From the IMG/VR virus record IMGVR_UViG_2526164631_000020: a stretch of 11,771 bases of DNA; one strand, 5' to 3'. This stretch comes from a virus (taxonomy: Duplodnaviria > Heunggongvirae > Uroviricota > Caudoviricetes). How positions within the stretch are numbered: the first letter of the stretch is position 1; each line of letters starts with the position of its first letter. Of this stretch, positions 1 through 11,771 are shown piece after piece. The translations under genes were made by a program, and so were the position numbers. A model generated the notes under the pieces. It was given only the letters and a program-made list of their open reading frames with translations, did not search any database and was not told the DNA's origin.

Positions 1-132
1 AGTGTGAAAGATATGACAATTACGGTAAACGGCGTGGCGACAGGTAAGGTGCAGATCCCTGTGGTGAGCGGAAATGGTCAGTTCGCCGCAGTGGCTGAAG
101 TCACCGTTACTGAAGCGGGCGCTGCAGGGTAA
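1..132 (+). CDS. V: Major tail protein V, C-terminal fragment (5' end lies outside the window)
   Basis: Frame is open from base 1 to TAA at 130-132 (translation ...[22 protein letters not shown]). It ends 13 nt before the G start, with SD GGAGG at 135-139 in between. Assignment is by position in the conserved lambda order V-G-T-H; the sequence itself was not matched to V. Confidence 0.5.
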
Positions 133-145
133 ACGGAGGTAATAC

Positions 146-577
146 ATGTTTCTGAAAACAGAACAATTTGAATATAACGGTGTGTCCGTCACGCTTTCCG
201 AGCTGTCTGCGCTGCAGCGTATTGAGCATCTTGCCCTCCTGAAACGGCGTGCAGAACAGGCAGAATCCAGCGGCAACCTGCAGGTAAGCGTGGAAGATCT
301 CGTCAGAACCGGCGCGTTTCTGGTGGCGATGTCCCTGTGGCATAACCATCCGCAGAAAACGGCATCACCGTCAATGAATGAGGCTGTGATGCAGATCGAA
401 CAGGAGGTGCTCACCACCTGGCCTGCGGATGCCATTGCCCGGGCGGAAGATGTGGTGTTGCGTCTGTCCGGGATGAGCGGGGCTGTTCATGCGGATACTG
501 ACAGCACCGAAGTGGCGAAAAATAACGCGCTGACTGATGATGATTTTTCTGCGGGAAAGTCTTCGACGGCGAGCTGA
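146..577 (+). CDS. G: Tail assembly chaperone gpG
   Basis: 143-aa ORF with ATG at 146 preceded by SD GGAGG. Translation (MFLKTEQFEYNGVSVTLSELSALQRIEHLALLKRRAEQAES...) closely resembles lambda gpG as I recall it, and the size matches (lambda 140 aa). The slippery heptamer sits 6 codons before the stop. Confidence 0.9.
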   Translation: MFLKTEQFEYNGVSVTLSELSALQRIEHLALLKRRAEQAESSGNLQVSVEDLVRTGAFLVAMSLWHNHPQKTASPSMNEAVMQIEQEVLTTWPADAIARAEDVVLRLSGMSGAVHADTDSTEVAKNNALTDDDFSAGKSSTAS

Positions 578-1017
578 ATTTTGCCCTCAGACTGGCGCGA
601 GAGATGGGGAGGCCTGACTGGCGCGCCATGCTTGCCGGGATGACATCCACCGAATATGCCGACTGGCGACATTTTTACCGCACGCATTATTTTCACGATA
701 CCCAACTGGATATGCATTTTTCCGGGCTGACGTACGCCGTACTCAGCCTGTTTTTTTGCGATCCGGATATGCATCCCTCTGATTTCAGTCTGCTTGTCCC
801 CCGGCATGAGGAAGAGCAGGTGGAGAGGCTGGATGAGGACAAAATGCTGATGCAGAAAGCGGCAGGACTTGCCGGAGGCGTCCGGTTCGGTGGGGACGGA
901 GGGGGCGATATTTTATCGTCTGCGGATGTGGCGGATGTCATGGTGGATGATGCCGCATTAATGAGGGCTTCAGCGGGGATTCCAGGAGGTGTGAGATATA
1001 TCCCAGCCGGTTGGTGA
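146..1017 (+). CDS. T: Tail assembly chaperone fusion gpG-T, made by programmed -1 ribosomal frameshift (G frame 146-559, then T frame 559-1017)
   Basis: Heptamer G_GGA_AAG at 553-559 lies in the G frame near its end. The -1 frame is open from there to TGA at 1015-1017, and the ORF track shows the T-domain frame (604..1017) with no plausible independent start or SD. This is the conserved G/G-T arrangement of lambda-like phages. Confidence 0.8.
553..559 (+). promoter_or_regulatory. -1 programmed ribosomal frameshift slippery site (GGGAAAG)
   Basis: The sequence gcGGGAAAGtc reads A-G-K in the G frame (codons 551-559). A one-base slip back re-pairs the tRNAs on GGG AAA and continues in the T frame. 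Confidence 0.8.
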
Positions 1018-1063
1018 TCTTATTATTGACCTGAGTCTGGATGCGGTCCGTTTCGATGAGCAG

Positions 1064-2353
1064 ATGAGCCGGGTAAGGCGTCATTTTTCCGGACTGGAGA
1101 CTGACGCCAGAAAAACCGCCGGTGTCGTTGAGCAGAACCTGAGTCGTCAGGCGCTGGCTGCACAAAAAGCCGGGATTTCCGTCGGGCAGTATAAAGCGGC
1201 CATGCGAACCCTGCCCGCACAGTTTACGGATATCGCCACGCAGCTTGCCGGTGGTCAGAATCCCTGGCTGATCCTGCTGCAACAGGGCGGTCAGGTGAAG
1301 GACTCCTTCGGCGGGATGATCCCCATGCTCAGGGGGCTTGCCGGTGCGATCACCCTGCCGATGGTCGGGGTCACCTCGCTGGCGGTGGCGACAGGTGCGC
1401 TGGCGTACGCCTGGTACCAGGGGGATTCCACGCTTTCAGCGTTTAATAAAACCCTGGTTCTTTCCGGTAATCAGTCCGGACTGACTGCCGATCGTATGCT
1501 GACTCTCTCAAGAGCCGGGCAGGCAGCAGGGCTGACGTTTAACCAGGCGAGAGAGTCACTGGCAGCCCTGGTGAATGCCGGTGTGCGTGGTGGTGAACAG
1601 TTTGATGCCATCAACCAGAGTGTCGCGCGTTTTGCGTCTGCATCCGGTGTGGAGGTGGATAAAGTCGCTGAAGCCTTCGGGAAGCTGACCACTGACCCGA
1701 CGTCGGGACTGATGGCGATGGCGCGCCCGTTCCGTAACGTGACGGCAGAGCAGATTGCGTATGTTGCGCAGCTGCAGCGTTCCGGTGATGAGGCCGGGGC
1801 CTTACAGGCGGCGAACGAGGCCGCAACGAAAGGGTTTGATGACCAGACCCGCCGCCTGAAAGAGAACATGGGCACGCTGGAGACCTGGGCAGACAGGACT
1901 GCACGGGCATTCAAATCCATGTGGGATGCGGAGCTGGATATTGGTCGTCCTGATACCGCGCAGGAGATGCTGATTAAGGCAGAGGCTGCGTTTAAGAAAG
2001 CAGACGACATCTGGAATCTGCGCAAGGATGATTATTTTGTTAACGATGAAGCGCGGGCGCGTTACTGGGATGATCGTGAAAAGGCCCGTCTTGCGCTTGA
2101 AGCCGCCCGAAAGAAGGCTGAGCAGCAGACTCAACAGGACAAAAATGCGCAGCAGCAGAGCGATACCGAAGCGTCACGGCTGAAATATACCGAAGAGGCG
2201 CAGAAGGCTTACGAACGGCTGCAGACGCCGCTGGAGAAATATACCGCCCGTCAGGAAGAACTGAACAAGGCACTGAAAGACGGGAAAATCCTAGCAGGCG
2301 GATTACAACACGCTGATGGCGGCGGACGAAAAAGGATTATGAAGCGACGCTGA
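1064..2353 (+). CDS. H: Tail length tape measure protein H, N-terminal segment (the frame is open from 995 but has no ATG/GTG/TTG before 1064; the ORF is cut short by frame disruption near 2292-2330)
   Basis: 429-aa ORF, Ala/Gln/Glu-rich and coiled-coil-like (…RRHFSGLETDARKTAGVVEQ… …KAEQQTQQDKNAQQQSDTEASRLKYTEEAQKAYERLQ…), matching the lambda gpH N-terminal half as recalled. Located between T and M. Ends at TGA 2351-2353 after an aberrant tail (…KILAGGLQHADGGGRKRIMKRR*). Confidence 0.8.
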   Translation: MSRVRRHFSGLETDARKTAGVVEQNLSRQALAAQKAGISVGQYKAAMRTLPAQFTDIATQLAGGQNPWLILLQQGGQVKDSFGGMIPMLRGLAGAITLPMVGVTSLAVATGALAYAWYQGDSTLSAFNKTLVLSGNQSGLTADRMLTLSRAGQAAGLTFNQARESLAALVNAGVRGGEQFDAINQSVARFASASGVEVDKVAEAFGKLTTDPTSGLMAMARPFRNVTAEQIAYVAQLQRSGDEAGALQAANEAATKGFDDQTRRLKENMGTLETWADRTARAFKSMWDAELDIGRPDTAQEMLIKAEAAFKKADDIWNLRKDDYFVNDEARARYWDDREKARLALEAARKKAEQQTQQDKNAQQQSDTEASRLKYTEEAQKAYERLQTPLEKYTARQEELNKALKDGKILAGGLQHADGGGRKRIMKRR

Positions 2354-2373
2354 AAAAGCCGAAACAGTCCGGC

Positions 2374-3561
2374 GTGAAGGTGTCTGCGGGCGATCGTCAG
2401 GAAGACAGTGCTCATGCTGCCCTGCTGACGCTTCAGGCTGAACTCCGGACGCTGGAGAAGCATGCCGGAGCAAATGAGAAAATCAGCCAGCAGCGCCGGG
2501 ATTTGTGGAAGGCGGAGAGTCAGTTCGCGGTACTGGAGGAGGCGGCACAACGTCGCCAGCTGTCCGCACAGGAGAAATCCCTGCTGGCGCATAAAGATGA
2601 GACGCTGGAGTACAAACGCCAGCTGGCTGCACTTGGCGATAAGGTCACGTATCAGGAGCGTCTGAATGCGCTGGCGCAGCAGGCGGATAAATTCGCACAG
2701 CAGCAACGGGCAAAACGGGCCGCCATTGATGCGAAAAGCCGGGGGCTGACTGACCGGCAGGCAGAACGGGAAGCCACAGAACAGCGCCTGAAGGAACAGT
2801 ATGGCGATAATCCGCTGGCGCTGAATAACGTCATGTCAGAGCAGAAAAAGACCTGGGCGGCTGAAGACCAGCTTCGCGGGAACTGGATGGCAGGCCTGAA
2901 GTCCGGCTGGAGTGAGTGGGAAGAGAGCGCCACGGACAGTATGTCGCAGGTAAAAAGTGCAGCCACGCAGACCTTTGATGGTATTGCACAGAATATGGCG
3001 GCGATGCTGACCGGCAGTGAGCAGAACTGGCGCAGCTTCACCCGTTCCGTGCTGTCCATGATGACAGAAATTCTGCTTAAGCAGGCAATGGTGGGGATTG
3101 TCGGGAGTATCGGCAGCGCCATTGGCGGGGCTGTTGGTGGCGGCGCATCCGCGTCAGGCGGTACAGCCATTCAGGCCGCTGCGGCGAAATTCCATTTTGC
3201 AACCGGAGGGTTTACGGGAACCGGCGGCAAATATGAGCCAGCGGGGATTGTTCACCGTGGTGAGTTTGTCTTCACGAAGGAGGCAACCAGCCGGATTGGC
3301 GTGGGGAATCTTTACCGGCTGATGCGCGGCTATGCCACCGGCGGTTATGTCGGTACACCGGGCAGCATGGCAGACAGCCGGTCGCAGGCGTCCGGGACGT
3401 TTGAGCAGAATAACCATGTGGTGATTAACAACGACGGCACGAACGGGCAGATAGGGCCACAGGCGCTGAAGGCTGTTTATGACGTAGCCCGTAAGGCGGC
3501 AATGGATGTTGTGACCGGGCAGATGCGCGATGGTGGTCTGTTCTCCGGAGGTGGACGATGA
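2374..3561 (+). CDS. H: Tail length tape measure protein H, C-terminal segment (different frame from the N-terminal segment; frame open from 2317)
   Basis: 395-aa ORF (…QAELRTLEKHAGANEKISQQRRDLWKAESQ… …GGFTGTGGKYEPAGIVHRGEFVFTKEATSRIGVGNLYRLMRGYATGGYVG…) matching the lambda gpH C-terminal half as recalled. Its stop TGA 3559-3561 overlaps the M start ATG 3558 (ATGA), as at the lambda H/M junction. Confidence 0.8.
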   Translation: MKVSAGDRQEDSAHAALLTLQAELRTLEKHAGANEKISQQRRDLWKAESQFAVLEEAAQRRQLSAQEKSLLAHKDETLEYKRQLAALGDKVTYQERLNALAQQADKFAQQQRAKRAAIDAKSRGLTDRQAEREATEQRLKEQYGDNPLALNNVMSEQKKTWAAEDQLRGNWMAGLKSGWSEWEESATDSMSQVKSAATQTFDGIAQNMAAMLTGSEQNWRSFTRSVLSMMTEILLKQAMVGIVGSIGSAIGGAVGGGASASGGTAIQAAAAKFHFATGGFTGTGGKYEPAGIVHRGEFVFTKEATSRIGVGNLYRLMRGYATGGYVGTPGSMADSRSQASGTFEQNNHVVINNDGTNGQIGPQALKAVYDVARKAAMDVVTGQMRDGGLFSGGGR

Positions 3562-3887
3562 AAACCTTCCGCTGGAAAGTGAAACCCGGGATGGATGTGA
3601 CATCGGCTCCTTCCGTCAGGGAGGTGCGCTTTGGTGATGGCTATTCCCAGCGTGCGCCTGCCGGGCTGAACGCTGACCTGAAAACGTACAGCGTGACGCT
3701 GTCTGTCTCCCGTGAGGAGGCCACGGCGCTGGAGTCGTTTCTGGCAGAGCACGGAGGCTGGAAGGCCTTTCTGTGGACGCCGCCTTATGGTTACAGGCAG
3801 ATAAAGGTGACCTGCACAAAATGGTCGTCGCAGGTCAGTATGTTGCGTGTTGAGTTCAGCGCAGAGTTTAAACAGGTGGTGAACTGA
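3558..3887 (+). CDS. M: Minor tail protein gpM
   Basis: 109-aa ORF (MKTFRWKVKPGMDV…WTPPYGYRQIKVTC…LRVEFSAEFKQVVN), the same length as lambda gpM and very similar as recalled. SD GGAGGTGGA at 3547-3555; start overlaps the H stop. Confidence 0.9.
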   Translation: MKTFRWKVKPGMDVTSAPSVREVRFGDGYSQRAPAGLNADLKTYSVTLSVSREEATALESFLAEHGGWKAFLWTPPYGYRQIKVTCTKWSSQVSMLRVEFSAEFKQVVN

Positions 3888-4585
3888 TGCAGGATATCCG
3901 GCAGGAAACACTGAATGAATGCACCCGTGCGGAGCAGTCGGCCAGCGTGGTGCTCTGGGAAATCGACCTGACAGAGGTCGGTGGAGAACGTTATTTTTTC
4001 TGTAATGAGCAGAACGAAAAAGGTGAGCCGGTCACCTGGCAGGGGCGACAGTATCAGCCGTATCCCATTCAGGGGAGCGGTTTTGAACTGAATGGCAAAG
4101 GCACCAGTACGCGCCCCACGCTGACGGTTTCTAACCTGTACGGTATGGTCACCGGGATGGCGGAAGATATGCAGAGTCTGGTCGGCGGAACGGTGGTCCG
4201 GCGTAAGGTTTACGCCCGTTTTCTGGATGCGGTGAACTTCGTCAACGGAAACAGTGACGCCGATCCGGAGCAGGAGGTGATCAGCCGCTGGCGCATTGAG
4301 CAGTGCAGCGAACTGAGCGCGGTCAGTGCCTCCTTTGTACTGTCCACGCCGACGGAAACGGACGGCGCTGTTTTTCCGGGACGTATCATGCTGGCCAACA
4401 CCTGCACCTGGACCTATCGCGGCGGTGAGTGCGGTTATCACGGTCCGGCGGTCGCGGATGAATATGACCAGCCAACGTCCGATATCACGAAGGATAAATG
4501 CAGCAAATGCCTGAGCGGTTGTAAGTTTCGCAATAACGTCGGCAACTTTGGCGGCTTCCTTTCCATTAACAAACTTTCGCAGTAA
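3887..4585 (+). CDS. L: Minor tail protein gpL (tail tip assembly, C-terminal Cys cluster)
   Basis: 232-aa ORF, the same length as lambda gpL. Start ATG 3887 overlaps the M stop (TGATG). The C-terminus carries the Cys motif C..C(x5)C..C (…DKCSKCLSGCKFRNN…) that is consistent with the Fe-S cluster site of gpL. Confidence 0.9.
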   Translation: MQDIRQETLNECTRAEQSASVVLWEIDLTEVGGERYFFCNEQNEKGEPVTWQGRQYQPYPIQGSGFELNGKGTSTRPTLTVSNLYGMVTGMAEDMQSLVGGTVVRRKVYARFLDAVNFVNGNSDADPEQEVISRWRIEQCSELSAVSASFVLSTPTETDGAVFPGRIMLANTCTWTYRGGECGYHGPAVADEYDQPTSDITKDKCSKCLSGCKFRNNVGNFGGFLSINKLSQ

Positions 4586-4590
4586 ATCCC

Positions 4591-5334
4591 ATGACAGAGA
4601 CAGAATCAGCGATTCTGGCGCACGCCCGGCGATGTGCGCCAGCGGAGTCGTGCGGCTTCGTGGTGAGAACGCCGGAGGGGGAAAGATATTTTCCCTGCGT
4701 GAATATTTCCGGTGAGCCGGAGGATTATTTCCGGATGGCTCCGGAGGACTGGCTGCAGGCAGAGATGCAGGGTGAGATTGTGGCGCTGGTCCACAGCCAC
4801 CCCGGTGGTCTGCCCTGGCTGAGTGAGGCTGACCGGCGGTTGCAGGTGCAGAGTGATTTGCCGTGGTGGCTGGTCTGCCGGGGGGCGATTCACAAGTTCC
4901 GCTGTGTGCCACATCTTACCGGGCGGCGCTTTGAGCACGGGGTGACGGACTGTTACACGCTGTTCCGGGACGCTTACCATCTGGCGGGGATTGAGATGCC
5001 GGATTTTCATCGTGAGGATGACTGGTGGCGTAACGGTCAGAATCTCTATCTGGATAATCTGGAGGCCACAGGGCTGTATCAGGTGCCGTTGTCAGCGGCG
5101 CAGCCGGGCGATGTGCTGCTGTGCTGTTTTGGTTCATCGGTGCCGAATCACGCCGCAATTTACTGCGGCGACGGCGAGCTGCTGCACCATATTCCTGAAC
5201 AACTGAGTAAACGAGAGAGGTACACCGACAAATGGCAGCGACGCACACACTCCCTCTGGCGTCACCGGGCATGGCACGCATCTGCCTTTACGGGGATTTA
5301 CAACGATTTGGTCGCCGCATCGACCTTCGTGTAA
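4591..5334 (+). CDS. K: Tail tip assembly protein gpK (MPN/JAMM-like plus NlpC/P60-like domains); an alternative internal start at ATG 4735 gives the 199-aa form annotated in lambda
   Basis: 247-aa ORF. JAMM-type motif HSHPGGLPWLSEAD (H-x-H-x7-S-x2-D) at codons 68-81 (nt 4792-4833). Downstream there are Cys/His-containing stretches (…GVTDCYTLF… and …NHAAIYCGDGELLHH…) typical of NlpC/P60 peptidases. Overlaps the I start by 103 nt, as in lambda. Confidence 0.85.
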   Translation: MTETESAILAHARRCAPAESCGFVVRTPEGERYFPCVNISGEPEDYFRMAPEDWLQAEMQGEIVALVHSHPGGLPWLSEADRRLQVQSDLPWWLVCRGAIHKFRCVPHLTGRRFEHGVTDCYTLFRDAYHLAGIEMPDFHREDDWWRNGQNLYLDNLEATGLYQVPLSAAQPGDVLLCCFGSSVPNHAAIYCGDGELLHHIPEQLSKRERYTDKWQRRTHSLWRHRAWHASAFTGIYNDLVAASTFV

Positions 5335-5873
5335 AAACGGGGGCCGAAGCTATCCGTGCGCTGGCCACACAGATCCCGGCGTTTCGTCAGAAACTGAATG
5401 AGGGCTGGTATCAGGTGCGCATTGCCGGGCGTGATGCAGGCGAAACCGAATTATCTGCCCGTCTTAATGAGCCGCTGGCAAATGGTGCCGTGATCCACAT
5501 TGTGCCGCGTCTGGCGGGTGCCAAAAGTGGCGGTGTTTTTCAGGCAGTGCTGGGTGCGGCGCTGATTGCTACGGCAATCTGGATGCCGGGAATCAGTATC
5601 GCTTTCAGTGACATTCTCTTTTCTATGGGGGCAGCGATGACGCTTGGTGGTGTTGCACAGATGCTGGCTCCTAAACCCCAAACCCCCCGAACGCAGACAA
5701 CGGATAACGGCAAACAGAACACCTATTTCTCCTCACTGGATAACATGGTTGCCCAGGGCAATGTTCTGCCTGTTCTGTACGGTGAAATGCGCGTGGGGTC
5801 ACGCGTGGTTTCTCAGGAGATCAGCACGGCAGACGAAGGGGATGGTGGTCAGGTTGTGGTGATTGGTCGCTGA
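5232..5873 (+). CDS. I: Tail tip assembly protein gpI
   Basis: 213-aa ORF beginning inside the K 3' end (the K/I overlap conserved in lambda). N-terminus MAATHTLPLASPGMARICLYGDLQRFGRRIDLRVKTG…, a hydrophobic central segment, and C-terminus …VLYGEMRVGSRVVSQEISTADEGDGGQVVVIGR. Appears about 10 codons shorter than lambda gpI by recollection. Confidence 0.85.
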   Translation: MAATHTLPLASPGMARICLYGDLQRFGRRIDLRVKTGAEAIRALATQIPAFRQKLNEGWYQVRIAGRDAGETELSARLNEPLANGAVIHIVPRLAGAKSGGVFQAVLGAALIATAIWMPGISIAFSDILFSMGAAMTLGGVAQMLAPKPQTPRTQTTDNGKQNTYFSSLDNMVAQGNVLPVLYGEMRVGSRVVSQEISTADEGDGGQVVVIGR

Positions 5874-5891
5874 TGCAAAATGTTTTATGTG

Positions 5892-5911
5892 AAACCGCCT
5901 CCGGGCGGTTT
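5892..5911 (+). other. Intergenic stem-loop between I and J (possible attenuator or RNA-processing structure)
   Basis: Perfect 8-bp inverted repeat AAACCGCC (5892-5899) / GGCGGTTT (5904-5911) with a 4-nt loop, followed by a T-rich but interrupted tract (ttgtcgttta). Confidence 0.3.
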
Positions 5912-5933
5912 TGTCGTTTATGGAGCATGACGA

Positions 5934-8900
5934 ATGGGCAAAGGAAGCAGTAAGGGGCATACCCCGCGCGAAGCGAAGGACAACCTGAAGTCCACGCAAC
6001 TGCTGAGTGTGATTGATGCCATCAGCGAAGGGCCGATTGACGGTCCGGTGGATGGATTAAAAAGCGTGCTGCTGAACAGTACGCCGGTGCTGGACAGTGA
6101 GGGGAATACCAATATCTCCGGTGTCACGGTGGTGTTCCGGGCTGGTGAGCAGGAGCAGACTCCGCCGGAGGGATTTGAATCCTCCGGCTCCGAGACGGTG
6201 CTGGGTACGGAAGTGAAATACGACACGCCGATCACCCGCACCATCACGTCGGCAAACATCGATCGTCTGCGTTTTACCTTCGGTGTGCAGGCACTGGTGG
6301 AAACCACCTCAAAGGGGGACAGGAATCCGTCGGAAGTCCGCCTGCTGGTTCAGATACAACGTAACGGTGGCTGGGTGACGGAAAAAGACATCACCATTAA
6401 AGGCAAAACCACCTCACAGTATCTGGCATCGGTGGTGGTGGGTAACCTGCCGCCGCGCCCGTTCAATATCCGGATGCGCAGGATGACGCCGGACAGCACC
6501 ACAGACCAGCTGCAGAACAAAACGCTCTGGTCGTCATACACCGAAATCATCGATGTGAAACAGTGCTACCCGAACACGGCACTGGTCGGCGTACAGGTGG
6601 ATTCGGAGCAGTTCGGCAGCCAGCAGGTGAGCCGTAATTATCATCTTCGCGGGCGCATTCTGCAGGTGCCGTCGAACTATAACCCGCAGACGCGACAATA
6701 CAGCGGTATCTGGGACGGAACGTTAAAACCGGCATACAGCAACAACATGGCCTGGTGTCTGTGGGATATGCTTACCCATCCGCGCTACGGCATGGGGAAA
6801 CGTCTTGGTGCGGCGGATGTGGATAAATGGGCGCTGTATGTCATCGGCCAGTACTGCGACCAGGCAGTGCCGGACGGCTTTGGCGGCACGGAGCCGCGCA
6901 TCACCTGTAATGCGTACCTGACCACACAGCGCAAGGCGTGGGATGTGCTCAGTGATTTCTGCTCGGCGATGCGCTGTATGCCGGTATGGAACGGGCAGAC
7001 GCTGACGTTCGTGCAGGACCGACCGTCGGATAAGGTGTGGACCTATAACCGCAGTAATGTGGTGATGCCGGATGATGGCGCGCCGTTCCGCTACAGCTTT
7101 AGCGCCCTGAAAGACCGCCATAATGCCGTTGAGGTGAACTGGATTGACCCGAACAACGGCTGGGAGACGGCGACAGAGCTTGTGGAGGATACGCAGGCCA
7201 TTGCCCGTTACGGTCGTAACGTCACGAAGATGGATGCCTTTGGCTGTACCAGCCGGGGGCAGGCACACCGCGCCGGGCTGTGGCTGATTAAAACAGAACT
7301 GCTGGAAACGCAGACCGTGGACTTCTGCGTGGGCGCAGAAGGGCTTCGCCATGTGCCGGGCGATGTCATTGAAATCTGTGATGATGACTATGCCGGTATC
7401 AGCACCGGTGGTCGTGTGCTGGCGGTGAACAGCCAGACCCGGACGCTGACGCTCGACCGTGAAATCACGCTGCCATCCTCCGGTACCACGCTGATAAGCC
7501 TGGTTGACGGAAGTGGCAATCCGGTCAGCGTGGAGGTTCAGTCCGTCACCGACGGCGTGAAGGTAAAAGTGAGCCGTGTTCCTGACGGTGTTGCTGAATA
7601 CAGCGTATGGGGGCTGAAGCTGCCGACGTTGCGCCAGCGCCTGTTCCGCTGCGTGAGTGTCCGTGAGAACGACGACGGCACGTACGCTGTCACAGCCGTG
7701 CAGCATGTCCCGGAAAAAGAGGCCATCGTGGATAACGGGGCGCACTTTGACGGCGACCAGAGCGGCACGGTGAATGGTGTCACGCCGCCAGCGGTGCAGC
7801 ACCTGACTGCCGAAGTCACCGCAGACAGCGGGGAGTATCAGGTGCTGGCGCGATGGGACACACCGAAGGTGGTGAAGGGCGTGAGCTTCCTGCTCCGTCT
7901 GACCGTAACAGCGGACGACGGCAGTGAGCGGCTGGTCAGCACGGCCCGGACGACGGAAACCACATACCGCTTCACGCAACTGGCGCTGGGGCGTTACACG
8001 CTGACAGTCCGGGCGGTAAATGCGTGGGGGCAGCAGGGCGATCCGGCATCGGTATCGTTCCGGATTGCGGCACCGGCAGCGCCTGTCACTATTGAACTGA
8101 TACCAGGGTATTTTCAGATAACAGCGGTCCCGAAACTGGCTGTATATGACCCGACGGTGCAGTTTGAGTTCTGGTTCTCGGAAAAGCGGATTATCGATAT
8201 CAGGCAGGTTGAAACCAGCGCGCGTTATCTTGGTACGGCGCTGTACTGGATAGCCGCCAGTAGCAATATTAAGCCGGGTTATGATTATTACTTTTATATC
8301 CGCAGCGTGAACACCGTAGGTAAATCGGCATTTGTGGAGGCCGTCGGTCGGGCGAGCGATGATGCGGAAGGTTATCTGAATTTTTATAAAGGGTTGATCA
8401 ATAAAACGCATCTCGGCAAGGAACTGCTGGAAAACTTTGAGCTGACGGAGGATAACGCCAGCAAACTGGAGGAGTTTTCGAAAGAGTGGAAGGACGCTAA
8501 CGATAAATGGAATGCCATGTGGGGCGTCAAAATTGAGCAGACCAAAGACGGCAAACATTATGTCGCGGGTATTGGCCTCAGCATGGAGGACGCGGAGGAA
8601 GGCAAGCTGAGCCAGTTTCTGGTTGCCGCTAACCGTATCGCGTTTATTGACCCGGCAAACGGGAATGAAACGCCGATGTTTGTGGCGCAGGGCAACCAGA
8701 TATTCATGAATGACGTGTTCCTGAAACGCCTGACGGCCCCCACTATTACCAGCGGTGGCAATCCACCGGCATTTTCCCTGACACCGGACGGAAAGCTGAC
8801 TGCTAAAAATGCGGATATCAGTGGCAGTGTGAATGCGAACGCCGGGACGCTCAACAATGTCACGGTAAATGAAAACTGTACGATTAAGGGCATGCTGGAG

Positions 8901-9347
8901 GCGACCCAAGTCAGAGGGGATTTCGTTAAAGCTGTATCCAAATCATTTCCGAAACAGGCTGGTACGTGGGGTAACACGGAAACACCAAACGGGACGGTTA
9001 CAGTCACCATCAGCGATGATCATAACTTTGACCGTCAAATCATTATTCCGCCCATTATCTTTAACGGAATAGCGTATAGCTATCCGGGAAGTGGTAATAA
9101 CCCGGGAGGTACAAGTTACACGGGTTATGGTTTTGAAGTTCGCAAAAACGGTGTATTAATCGCATCCAGAGAAACTAAAGGGGCCATTCCCGGTAGCTAC
9201 AGTGCGGTTATTGATATGCCGAGTGGCAGGGGAAGCGTCACTCTGGAGTTTAAGGTTTTCCATAAAGGCAATCAGTGGGCAGGTAATATCACCGACTGTA
9301 CGGTGATTGTGACCAAAAAAGCCGCTTCCGGCATCAGTATTCGTTGA
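5934..9347 (+). CDS. J: Central tail fibre / host specificity protein gpJ
   Basis: 1137-aa ORF (lambda J is 1132 aa as recalled) with SD GGAG at 5922-5925. The N-terminal ~1000 aa look lambda J-like ([35 protein letters not shown]…). The C-terminal ~150 aa are the expected receptor-binding region. Confidence 0.9.
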
Positions 9348-9365
9348 AATTGTTATAACCCATAT

Positions 9366-9393
9366 AAGGGCACCAGAAATGGTGCCTTTTTTA
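9366..9393 (+). terminator. Rho-independent terminator downstream of J
   Basis: GC-rich hairpin GGCACC (9369-9374), loop AGAAAT, GGTGCC (9381-9386), followed directly by TTTTTT (9387-9392). Lies 19 nt after the J stop. Confidence 0.65.
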
Positions 9394-9416
9394 TTGCAGA
9401 AAAGCGAGAGGTAATT

Positions 9417-10016
9417 ATGCGTAAAGTTTGTGCAGCCATTTTGTCCGCAGCCATCTGTCTGTCCGTATCCGGTGCGTCTGCATGGGCGTCTGAACATCAG
9501 TCCACACTGAGCGCGGGGTATCTTCATGCCCGGACGAACGCTCCCGGTAGCGATAATCTTAACGGGATTAACGTGAAATACCGTTATGAATTTACGGACA
9601 CGCTGGGGCTGGTGACGTCATTCAGCTATGCAGGAGACAAGAATCGCCAGCTTACCCGTTACAGCGATACCCGCTGGCATGAAGATTCCGTGCGTAACCG
9701 CTGGTTCAGCGTAATGGCGGGGCCGTCTGTGCGCGTGAATGAATGGTTCAGCGCGTATGCGATGGCGGGTGTGGCTTACAGCCGTGTGTCGACTTTCTCC
9801 GGGGATTATCTTCGCGTAACTGACAACAAGGGGAAAACGCACGATGTGCTGACCGGAAGTGATGACGGTCGCCACAGCGACACCTCTCTGGCGTGGGGAG
9901 CTGGCGTGCAGTTTAACCCGACCGAATCCGTGGCCATTGATATTGCTTATGAAGGTTCCGGCAGTGGTGACTGGCGCACTGACGGTTTCATCGTGGGTGT
10001 CGGTTATAAATTCTGA
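9417..10016 (+). CDS. lom: Lom-like outer membrane beta-barrel protein (Ail/Lom/PagC/OmpX family), lysogenic-conversion moron
   Basis: 199-aa ORF with SD GAGAGG at 9405-9410. N-terminal signal peptide ([24 protein letters not shown]). C-terminus …[24 protein letters not shown] is identical in character to the lambda Lom C-terminal beta-strand with terminal Phe; the N-terminal two-thirds are more divergent. Confidence 0.85.
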
Positions 10017-10042
10017 TTAGCCAGGTAACACAGTGTTATGAC

Positions 10043-10070
10043 AGCCCGCCGGTTCAGGCGGGCTTTTTTG
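10043..10070 (+). terminator. Rho-independent terminator downstream of lom
   Basis: Perfect 8-bp stem AGCCCGCC (10043-10050) / GGCGGGCT (10057-10064), loop GGTTCA, followed by a T6 run (10064-10069). Lies 27 nt after the lom stop. Confidence 0.75.
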
Positions 10071-10080
10071 TGGGGTGAAT

Positions 10081-11394
10081 ATGGCAGTAAAGATTTCAGG
10101 TGTACTGAAAGACGGCACAGGAAAACCGGTACAAAACTGCACCATTCAGCTAAAGGCCAGACGCAACAGCACCACGGTGGTGGTGAACACGGTGGCCTCA
10201 GAAAATCCGGATGAAGCCGGGCGTTACAGCATGGACGTTGAGTACGGACAGTACAGCGTCAGTCTGTTGGTGGAGGGATTTCCGCCGTCACACGCCGGGA
10301 TTATCACCGTGTATGAGGACTCAAAGCCGGGCACACTGAATGATTTCCTCGGTGCAATGACGGAGGATGATGTCCGGCCGGAGGCACTGCGCCGTTTTGA
10401 ACTGATGGTGGAAGAGGTGGCGCGTCACGCTGAGGAGGCGAAGAAGAATGCCGGAGAGGCGGAGACGTCAGCGAGGAATGCCGGCATATCAGCCAGTCAG
10501 GCAGAAGAGAGCGCTGCAAATGCTGACACTTCAGCAGGGGAGGCATCGGAGTCAGCCCGGCAGGCGGCAGAAAGTGCAGCCTCAGCAAAGCAGTCAGAGG
10601 ATGCGTCCTCGTCCTCGGCTTCTGCGGCCGCTCAAAAAGCCAGTGAGTCATCACAAAGTGCAGCAGAAGCTGAATTGTCAAGAAAGACGGCAGAAAGTGC
10701 AGCCGGTAATGCAGCCAGGGATGCAATGACCGCAACAGAAAAAGCCCGGGAGTCAGCAGAAAGCGCACAGTCAGCGGAACAAAGCAGGATAGCGGCGGAA
10801 GACGCCGTAAACCGAATCCCCACCGTGGTGGGACCTCCCGGGCCAAAGGGAGAACCGGGGCCCGCGGGTCCTCAGGGGCCGAAGGGAGATAAAGGAGAGC
10901 GTGGCGACACCGGTCCTGTCGGGGCAACCGGTGAGCGGGGACCGGCAGGTGATGCTGGTCCGGCAGGCCCGCAGGGGCCGAAAGGCGACAGGGGAGAGCG
11001 GGGAGAGACCGGTCTGACGGGAAATGCAGGTCCACAGGGTCCAAAGGGAGATACCGGTGCGGCAGGCCCGGCTGGCCCACAGGGACCGAAAGGAGAAACA
11101 GGTGCGGCTGGCCCGGTGGGGGCAACCGGACCTCAGGGACCGAAGGGCGACCCGGGGGAGACACAAATCCGTTTTCGTCTGGGGCCGGGAAACATTATTG
11201 AGACAAACAGCCATGGCTGGTTCCCGGATACAGATGGCGCACTCATCACCGGACTGACCTTTCTTGACCCCAAAGATGCCACACAGGTTCAGGGTTTTTT
11301 TCAGCATTTGCAGGTCAGGTTTGGTGACGGGCCGTGGCAGGATGTTAAGGGGCTGGATGAAGTGGGCAGTGATACAGGCAGAACAGGAGAATGA
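10081..11394 (+). CDS. stf: Side tail fibre protein with lambda Stf-like N-terminal anchor, Ala/Ser/Glu-rich low-complexity segment, collagen-like Gly-X-Y region and a ~76-aa C-terminal tip domain
   Basis: ATG at 10081 (the ORF track starts at GTG 10075). N-terminus [38 protein letters not shown]… matches the lambda Stf N-terminus as recalled. Contains 37 consecutive G-X-Y triplets. Stop TGA at 11392-11394. Confidence 0.85.
10831..11163 (+). repeat. Collagen-like Gly-X-Y triplet repeat region inside stf (37 uninterrupted triplets, with GPQGPKG recurring five times)
   Basis: Translation [111 protein letters not shown]. The nucleotide sequence is GC-rich with imperfect internal repeats. Confidence 0.9.
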
Positions 11395-11395
11395 C

Positions 11396-11665
11396 ATGAA
11401 CGTACTAAAAAAACTTATGCAGCGTCTGTGCGGTTGCGGAAAGCATGATGACCGTGAACACGGGGAGTTACTTACAGCACAACTGCGTCTGGGGCCGGCA
11501 GACATTCTGGAGTCAGATGAGAATGGCATTATCCCGGAGCAGGCCAGGGTAATCACGCAGGTGGTGATACTGGATGCGGATAAAAAGCAGATACAGTGTG
11601 TGGTAAGACCGCTGCAAATCCTGCGTGCTGACGGGACGTGGGAAAATATTGGCGGGATGAAATAG
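11396..11665 (+). CDS. Hypothetical 89-aa protein, paralogue of the stf C-terminal domain
   Basis: ATG at 11396 with SD AGGAGA at 11385-11390, one base after the stf stop; TAG at 11663-11665. The segment LRLGPADILESDENGIIPEQARVITQVVILDADKKQIQCVVRPLQILRADGTWENIGG aligns with stf [60 protein letters not shown]. An identical 13-mer CGTCTGGGGCCGG occurs at 11176-11188 and 11486-11498. Confidence 0.6.
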   Translation: MNVLKKLMQRLCGCGKHDDREHGELLTAQLRLGPADILESDENGIIPEQARVITQVVILDADKKQIQCVVRPLQILRADGTWENIGGMK

Positions 11666-11771
11666 CCGACGAGTTCACAAAAACCGAACAGATCTGCCTG
11701 ATTGCCGAGGAAGAGCAACCGAAACTGATGGTAATTGACTCGATCCAGGTGATGCATATGGCGGATGTACC
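11632..11771 (+). pseudogene. radA: RadA/Sms-like recombinase gene fragment (internal RecA-like ATPase-domain segment, 5'-truncated; runs off the window end)
   Basis: Frame opens after TGA at 11629-11631 and reads RDVGKYWRDEIADEFTKTEQICLIAEEEQPKLMVIDSIQVMHMADV. The stretch EQICLIAEEEQPKLMVIDSIQVMHMADV (from about 11686) matches my recollection of an internal region of E. coli RadA/Sms (the hydrophobic-IDSIQ motif). The preceding residues do not resemble RadA and there is no N-terminal zinc-finger region. Confidence 0.45.

Follow-up and report, generated by a model that had tools for sequence, protein, structure and literature searches.

The window analysed here comprises 11,771 nucleotides and is identical to the entire 11,771-bp contig AIHA01000060.1 of the draft assembly GCA_000250215.2, which was obtained from Escherichia coli DEC12A, an EPEC strain of serotype O111:H2. 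The draft belongs to the DECA collection (accessions AIEV-AIHS), published in 2012. The paper describing these genomes is reportedly that of Hazen et al. from 2012. Literature searches yielded nothing on the sequencing method used for DEC12A or on the identity of strain 12A, a finished genome that is used for comparison below. The contig carries a lambdoid tail module, in which the tape-measure gene H is located between the chaperone genes G/T and the genes M-L-K-I-J, an order as found in lambda and in E. coli prophages. At the homologous place relatives have an annotated CDS of 2562 nt. In the DEC12A contig two fragments of H are deposited in GenBank instead (EHX21741.1 and EHX21742.1). The features relevant to this locus are as follows:

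1-1147, + strand: left part of the contig with alternating bases of two prophage copies (copy B and copy A), a chimeric consensus according to a three-way alignment.
998-3561, + strand: lambda-type tail tape-measure gene H, 853 codons after removal of both extra bases.
998-1000, + strand: start codon of H, changed from ATG to ATA by a private G to A exchange at position 1000, which in gene T, overlapping H at this point, replaces V by I.
1064-2353, + strand: deposited ORF EHX21741.1 (429 aa), N-terminal fragment of H that starts at the internal Met23.
1728, + strand: private A to C exchange, Q244P in H.
1932, + strand: private T to A exchange, V312E in H.
2293, + strand: extra A no. 1, shifting H from frame 2 to frame 0 (CCTGCAGG becomes CCTAGCAGG; CTGCAG becomes CTAGCAG).
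2295-2324, + strand: QADYNTLMAA, ten codons of H left in frame 0 and flanked by the two insertions.
2326, + strand: extra A no. 2, shifting H from frame 0 to frame 1 (GGCGGCGAAAAAGG becomes GGCGGACGAAAAAGG; GGCGGCG becomes GGCGGACG).
2351-2353, + strand: premature TGA that terminates the N-terminal fragment, whose last 19 residues (AGGLQHADGGGRKRIMKRR) are out of frame.
2380-3561, + strand: deposited ORF EHX21742.1 (393 aa, GTG start), C-terminal fragment of H.
11687-11771, + strand: 85-nt piece of radA (encoding QICLIAEEEQPKLMVIDSIQVMHMADV) joined to the sequence directly 3' of the tail-fibre assembly gene, a spurious contig end.

Two further observations concern the neighbouring genes. Near the end of gene G (146-577) and upstream of T (604-1017) the window contains GGGAAAG (553-559), the slippery heptamer at which the -1 shift of lambda G/GT takes place; programmed frameshifting of this tail chaperone therefore appears to be conserved. 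The K-like ORF (4591-5334) encodes 247 aa with Prok-JAB and NlpC/P60 domains and is annotated in relatives as a C40 family peptidase. Lambda K is annotated with 199 aa in J02459; this difference in length is probably a matter of start codon annotation and not of biology.

According to the original prediction H is split over three reading frames within about 40 nt by two 1-bp insertions, and all coordinates involved were confirmed by translation and alignment. In frame 2 the H-like translation runs from the ATG at 1064 to ELNKALKDGKIL (KDGKIL) and continues out of frame to the TGA at 2351-2353. The short segment in frame 0 is flanked by a TAG (2292-2294) and a TGA (2340-2342), and in frame 1 the H sequence resumes as KKDYEATLKKPKQSGVKVSAGDRQ from position 2329 and reaches its stop at 3561. 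The frame of H is thus moved twice within 33 nt. As deposited, H does not form one continuous ORF of about 853 codons of the gpH type, since it lies in three frames and lacks its ATG. Deletion of 2293 and 2326 yields a single ORF of 853 codons at 998-3561, in agreement with the roughly 850 aa that had been predicted for the repaired gene; a continuous ORF is likewise present in the finished genomes of the lineage (see below). The repaired protein is identical to lambda H in 805 of 853 residues, which bears out the proposed lambda H-like identity, and to WP_112081519.1, the intact H of copy A in strain 12A, in 846 of 853. Precomputed Pfam assignments place TMP_2 (PF06791) on the 429-aa fragment and Tape_meas_lam_C (PF09718), together with a weak PF24622, on the 393-aa fragment.

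The alignment at the nucleotide level that had been suggested as a check was run against H of lambda, E2348/69, strain 12A, FDAARGOS_1059 and five other phage alleles (85-97% identity). It confirmed the two extra A's: exactly two single-A insertions, at 2293 and 2326, distinguish the window from these sequences as far as indels are concerned. The bases flanking both positions are invariant across all aligned alleles. The insertion at 2293 destroys a PstI site (CTGCAG). Lambda gpH (J02459, CDS 10542-13103, AAA96548.1, 853 aa) occupies the same position between G/T and M-L-K-I-J and has the same length as the repaired protein; its nucleotides around the insertion site are identical to those of the window except for the two A's. 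Over the whole gene the differences from lambda are the two extra bases (2293, 2326), a start codon that reads ATA where lambda has ATG, and about 48 amino acid substitutions. The probability that two independent random indels fall at most 33 nt apart in 11.7 kb is about 0.0055, and the two A's are therefore best regarded as the product of one local event or as an artefact.

Next, all H copies were counted that match a 77-nt query centred on both insertions, including paralogs that remain hidden when only the best place per record is listed. None of the 6,794 places found (3,726 records from 5,426 complete E. coli genomes) contains either extra A, and the best score was 75 of 77; a hidden paralog carrying the insertions was rejected as their source on these grounds. 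Phage genomes gave the same picture: 122 of 128 records match over the full length of the query, and all of these align 219 bases to its 221, that is, without both bases. The exact string around the insertion at 2293 has no match in viral, species-representative genome and metagenome contig collections, and a scan for the exact string around the insertion at 2326, which covered the viral collection only, gave no match there. The tail peptide AGGLQHADGGGRKRIMKRR, which is made only when both insertions are present, occurs in no other protein cluster. Small ORFs caused by other frameshifts in the same ~100 nt of H (window ~2200-2400) were seen in other public E. coli assemblies (P0031-P0035, some with contigs >5 Mb). 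Their lesions are mostly located at the A-runs GGGAAAATCC and GCGAAAAAGG, and P0033 has two compensating shifts in H. These cases resemble DEC12A in that small ORFs result from frame changes in H, but the lesions are different ones and none has the tail AGGLQHADGGGRKRIMKRR.

The closest complete genomes are those of E. coli O111:H2 strain 12A (NZ_CP077479.1) and FDAARGOS_1059 (NZ_CP066032.1), both with 99.5% identity over window positions 69-11686. Only these two of 5,426 genomes match window 11300-11686 at 100% (next best 98.7%), and only these two reach at least 99% over window 1700-1960 (next best 96.9%). Based on these allele-specific matches both genomes carry the prophage allele of the window and belong to the same lineage. 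From its name, its serotype and the allele-specific identity we infer that strain 12A (NZ_CP077479) is DEC12A itself or a clonal sibling. In the prophage of strain 12A at 3131153-3142768 and in FDAARGOS_1059, the same H allele is present as one uninterrupted ORF of 853 codons, an intact 2562-nt CDS (WP_112081519.1) with neither A. Compared base by base with these genomes, the two A's are the only indels in 11.6 kb, and positions 1933-3966 are otherwise identical. The lesion is thus not repeated in independent assemblies of the lineage. The H of the window differs from that of 12A and FDAARGOS_1059 by the five private changes and by a four-residue patch (residues 34, 42, 43 and 47) derived from a second prophage copy. 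Downstream of the region matching the window (L003, 14711-16514), the prophage of strain 12A carries NleG-family T3SS effector pseudogenes with an IS2 interruption and, after these, espW. Effector cargo of this kind is typical of EPEC, and the draft contig lacks it.

Besides the two insertions, and beyond what the original prediction had described, H contains the loss of the start codon (ATG to ATA) and the exchanges Q244P (1728) and V312E (1932). Position 1000 is G in lambda, E2348/69, copies A and B of strain 12A, FDAARGOS_1059 and Z1323CEC0013. At all five private sites lambda, E2348/69, both copies of 12A and FDAARGOS_1059 agree with each other against the window. Z1323CEC0013 does so at all sites except 1932, where its local sequence differs and the T is still present. 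The substitutions at 1728 and 1932 were found in none of 6,783 places of complete genomes (best match 259/261). These five (1000, 1728, 1932 and the two A's) are the only differences in window 1-11686 that match neither copy A nor copy B, and they all lie within positions 1000-2326, that is, in 1,327 nt of an 11.7-kb contig. In the other ~9 kb of copy-A-like sequence no private difference was detected, and the other tail genes (G, T, M, L, K, I, J, lom, stf and tfa) are intact. Simulation gave a probability of about 0.0007 for such clustering under random placement, which points to one locally bad stretch. If a dead tail module were decaying neutrally, its changes would not stay within half of one gene, whereas those of a locally poor consensus would.

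Strain 12A contains six to seven places that match the window and hence several lambdoid tail modules. When the window was aligned three ways with copy A (3131153-3142768) and copy B (starting at 1927303) of strain 12A, it proved to consist of 14 alternating runs of A- and B-type bases. Runs 1 to 7 are B 1-504, A 529, B 532, A 600-681, B 696-738, A 797-1022 and B 1090-1147; runs 8 to 14 are A 1328-3870, B 3967-4169, A 4256-7220, B 7238, A 7244-11073, B 11139-11175 and A 11189-11672. Exactly 50 of the 53 substitutions that separate the window from copy A are copy-B bases. The first 200 bases of the window are 100% copy B, and positions 11600-11685 are 100% copy A. For window 1-1200 no complete genome gives a match of at least 99%, though A or B accounts for almost all bases. 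Some of the B-type tracts are single bases with A-type sites 6-18 nt on either side, a pattern that fits a consensus of mixed reads better than recombination. At the other end the junction between the tail-fibre flank and radA was found in no complete E. coli genome. The radA piece itself carries one private mismatch: in 4,846 genomes it has a match of 98.8% over 84 nt, and no genome matches it at 100%. It looks like a chimeric, low-quality contig end. The bases of the contig switch between paralogous copies and no single locus is matched throughout; the contig is chimeric and a faithful copy of no single locus.

Taken together, the split of H is most likely a local sequence or consensus error in a chimeric draft repeat contig, which we hold with considerable though not full confidence. 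The draft origin of the contig and the intact H in the finished genomes of the lineage make a sequence error the most probable cause of the break, which would then be of little biological interest. The contig would have been assembled across several near-identical prophage tail modules of DEC12A, and the two A's, the lost start codon and the two missense changes would be consensus errors within one poor stretch of 1.33 kb that presumably arose during sequencing or consensus calling. The earlier expectation that a broken tape measure renders the prophage defective or cryptic is not upheld, since H is intact in the finished genomes of the lineage; the reservation made with it, that the break could be an assembly error, is the reading favoured by the data, the contig being chimeric.

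Some points speak against an error. The mixing of reads from copies A and B would not directly explain the two A's, because the contig is purely A-type over 1328-3870; it follows copy A at 182 consecutive informative sites in the 2.5-kb stretch that holds both insertions. In addition, neither insertion site is a homopolymer. The original prediction had noted this correctly, as seen in the alignments, and had counted it against a typical sequencing error, an argument that carries little weight because the same 1.3 kb holds other private errors outside homopolymers.

Specific mechanisms for an error were examined as well. An artefact in which a SNP column was split in two was not supported as the specific cause: none of the eight aligned reference sequences has a substitution to A at either site. 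In strain 12A the nearest differences between copies A and B lie 8 and 11 nt downstream of the insertions. A basecalling error at a methylation motif (CTGCAG) was rejected, as the window's eight remaining CTGCAG sites show no change, the site at 2326 has no such motif, and a draft from 2012 predates nanopore sequencing. With the 454 flow order TACG, each of the two insertions (T[A]G and G[A]C) could result from one spurious A flow, a fit expected by chance for half of all insertions outside homopolymers. Template switching at a quasi-palindrome was considered because of the inverted repeats AATCCT (2287-2292) and AGGATT (2333-2338), but by eye the insertions do not improve the palindrome.

Among the alternatives to a sequence error, the lesions could be real. 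The DEC12A stock of 2012 would then have carried a strain-private, inactivated H with a lost start codon, two +1 frameshifts and two missense changes, would have made no tails from this module, and the prophage would be defective. The lesions are indeed present in the deposited sequence, where H is annotated as two ORFs, and the frameshifted H genes of P0031-P0035 indicate that pseudogenes of H, or errors in it, are common. EPEC and EHEC are rich in defective lambdoid prophages. We nevertheless consider a real pseudogene unlikely: the same allele is intact in two finished genomes of the lineage, a cluster of five private changes in a 1.33-kb part of one gene, with the remaining ~9 kb of copy-A-like sequence free of them, is unlike neutral decay, all the other tail genes listed above are intact, and the chimeric contig copies no one locus faithfully. 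If the five changes were real and had arisen together, they would represent one localised mutation burst, for example by error-prone repair or through a recombination tract, limited to the 5' half of the H gene carried by the DEC12A stock. Such a burst would have disabled the tape measure in one lambdoid prophage among several resident in the same strain, leaving the rest of the tail module untouched, and is in our view very improbable. Finally, functional frame changes, either as two programmed +1 ribosomal frameshifts or as a deliberate synthesis of H in two polypeptides, are effectively excluded, because neither insertion is shared by any of the relatives (122 phage records and ~6,800 copies of H), the sequences AUC CUA GCA and GGC GGA CGA contain no slippery or shift-prone motif (no X XXY YYZ heptamer and no prfB-like motif within 2285-2330), and the natural start codon of H is destroyed too. 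Recoding is used in tail modules, as the slippery heptamer of the neighbouring G/GT illustrates, and a C-terminal ORF starting with GTG is present at 2380; however, this GTG has no obvious Shine-Dalgarno sequence upstream. The programmed -1 frameshift of lambda G/GT is likewise a frame change in the same tail module, but it is conserved in relatives and occurs at a slippery heptamer, whereas the frame changes in H are unique to this contig, +1 in sense and without a slippery motif. The length of the lambda tail is set by one continuous gpH chain.

Returning to a consensus error as the preferred explanation, H in the real chromosome of DEC12A is most likely a single intact ORF of 853 codons, as in the finished genomes of the lineage. 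The protein would be a normal lambda-type tape measure, which determines the length of the tail and assembles with the G/GT chaperones and the tip proteins M-L-K-I-J encoded next to it. Short draft contigs of E. coli that consist of lambdoid tail genes alone are often a collapsed or chimeric consensus of several prophages, and frameshifts in such contigs should be read as prophage decay or as recoding only with support from reads. Should the lesions be true after all, one of about six lambdoid prophages in this EPEC O111:H2 strain would be unable to make tails, which is a common and unsurprising state.
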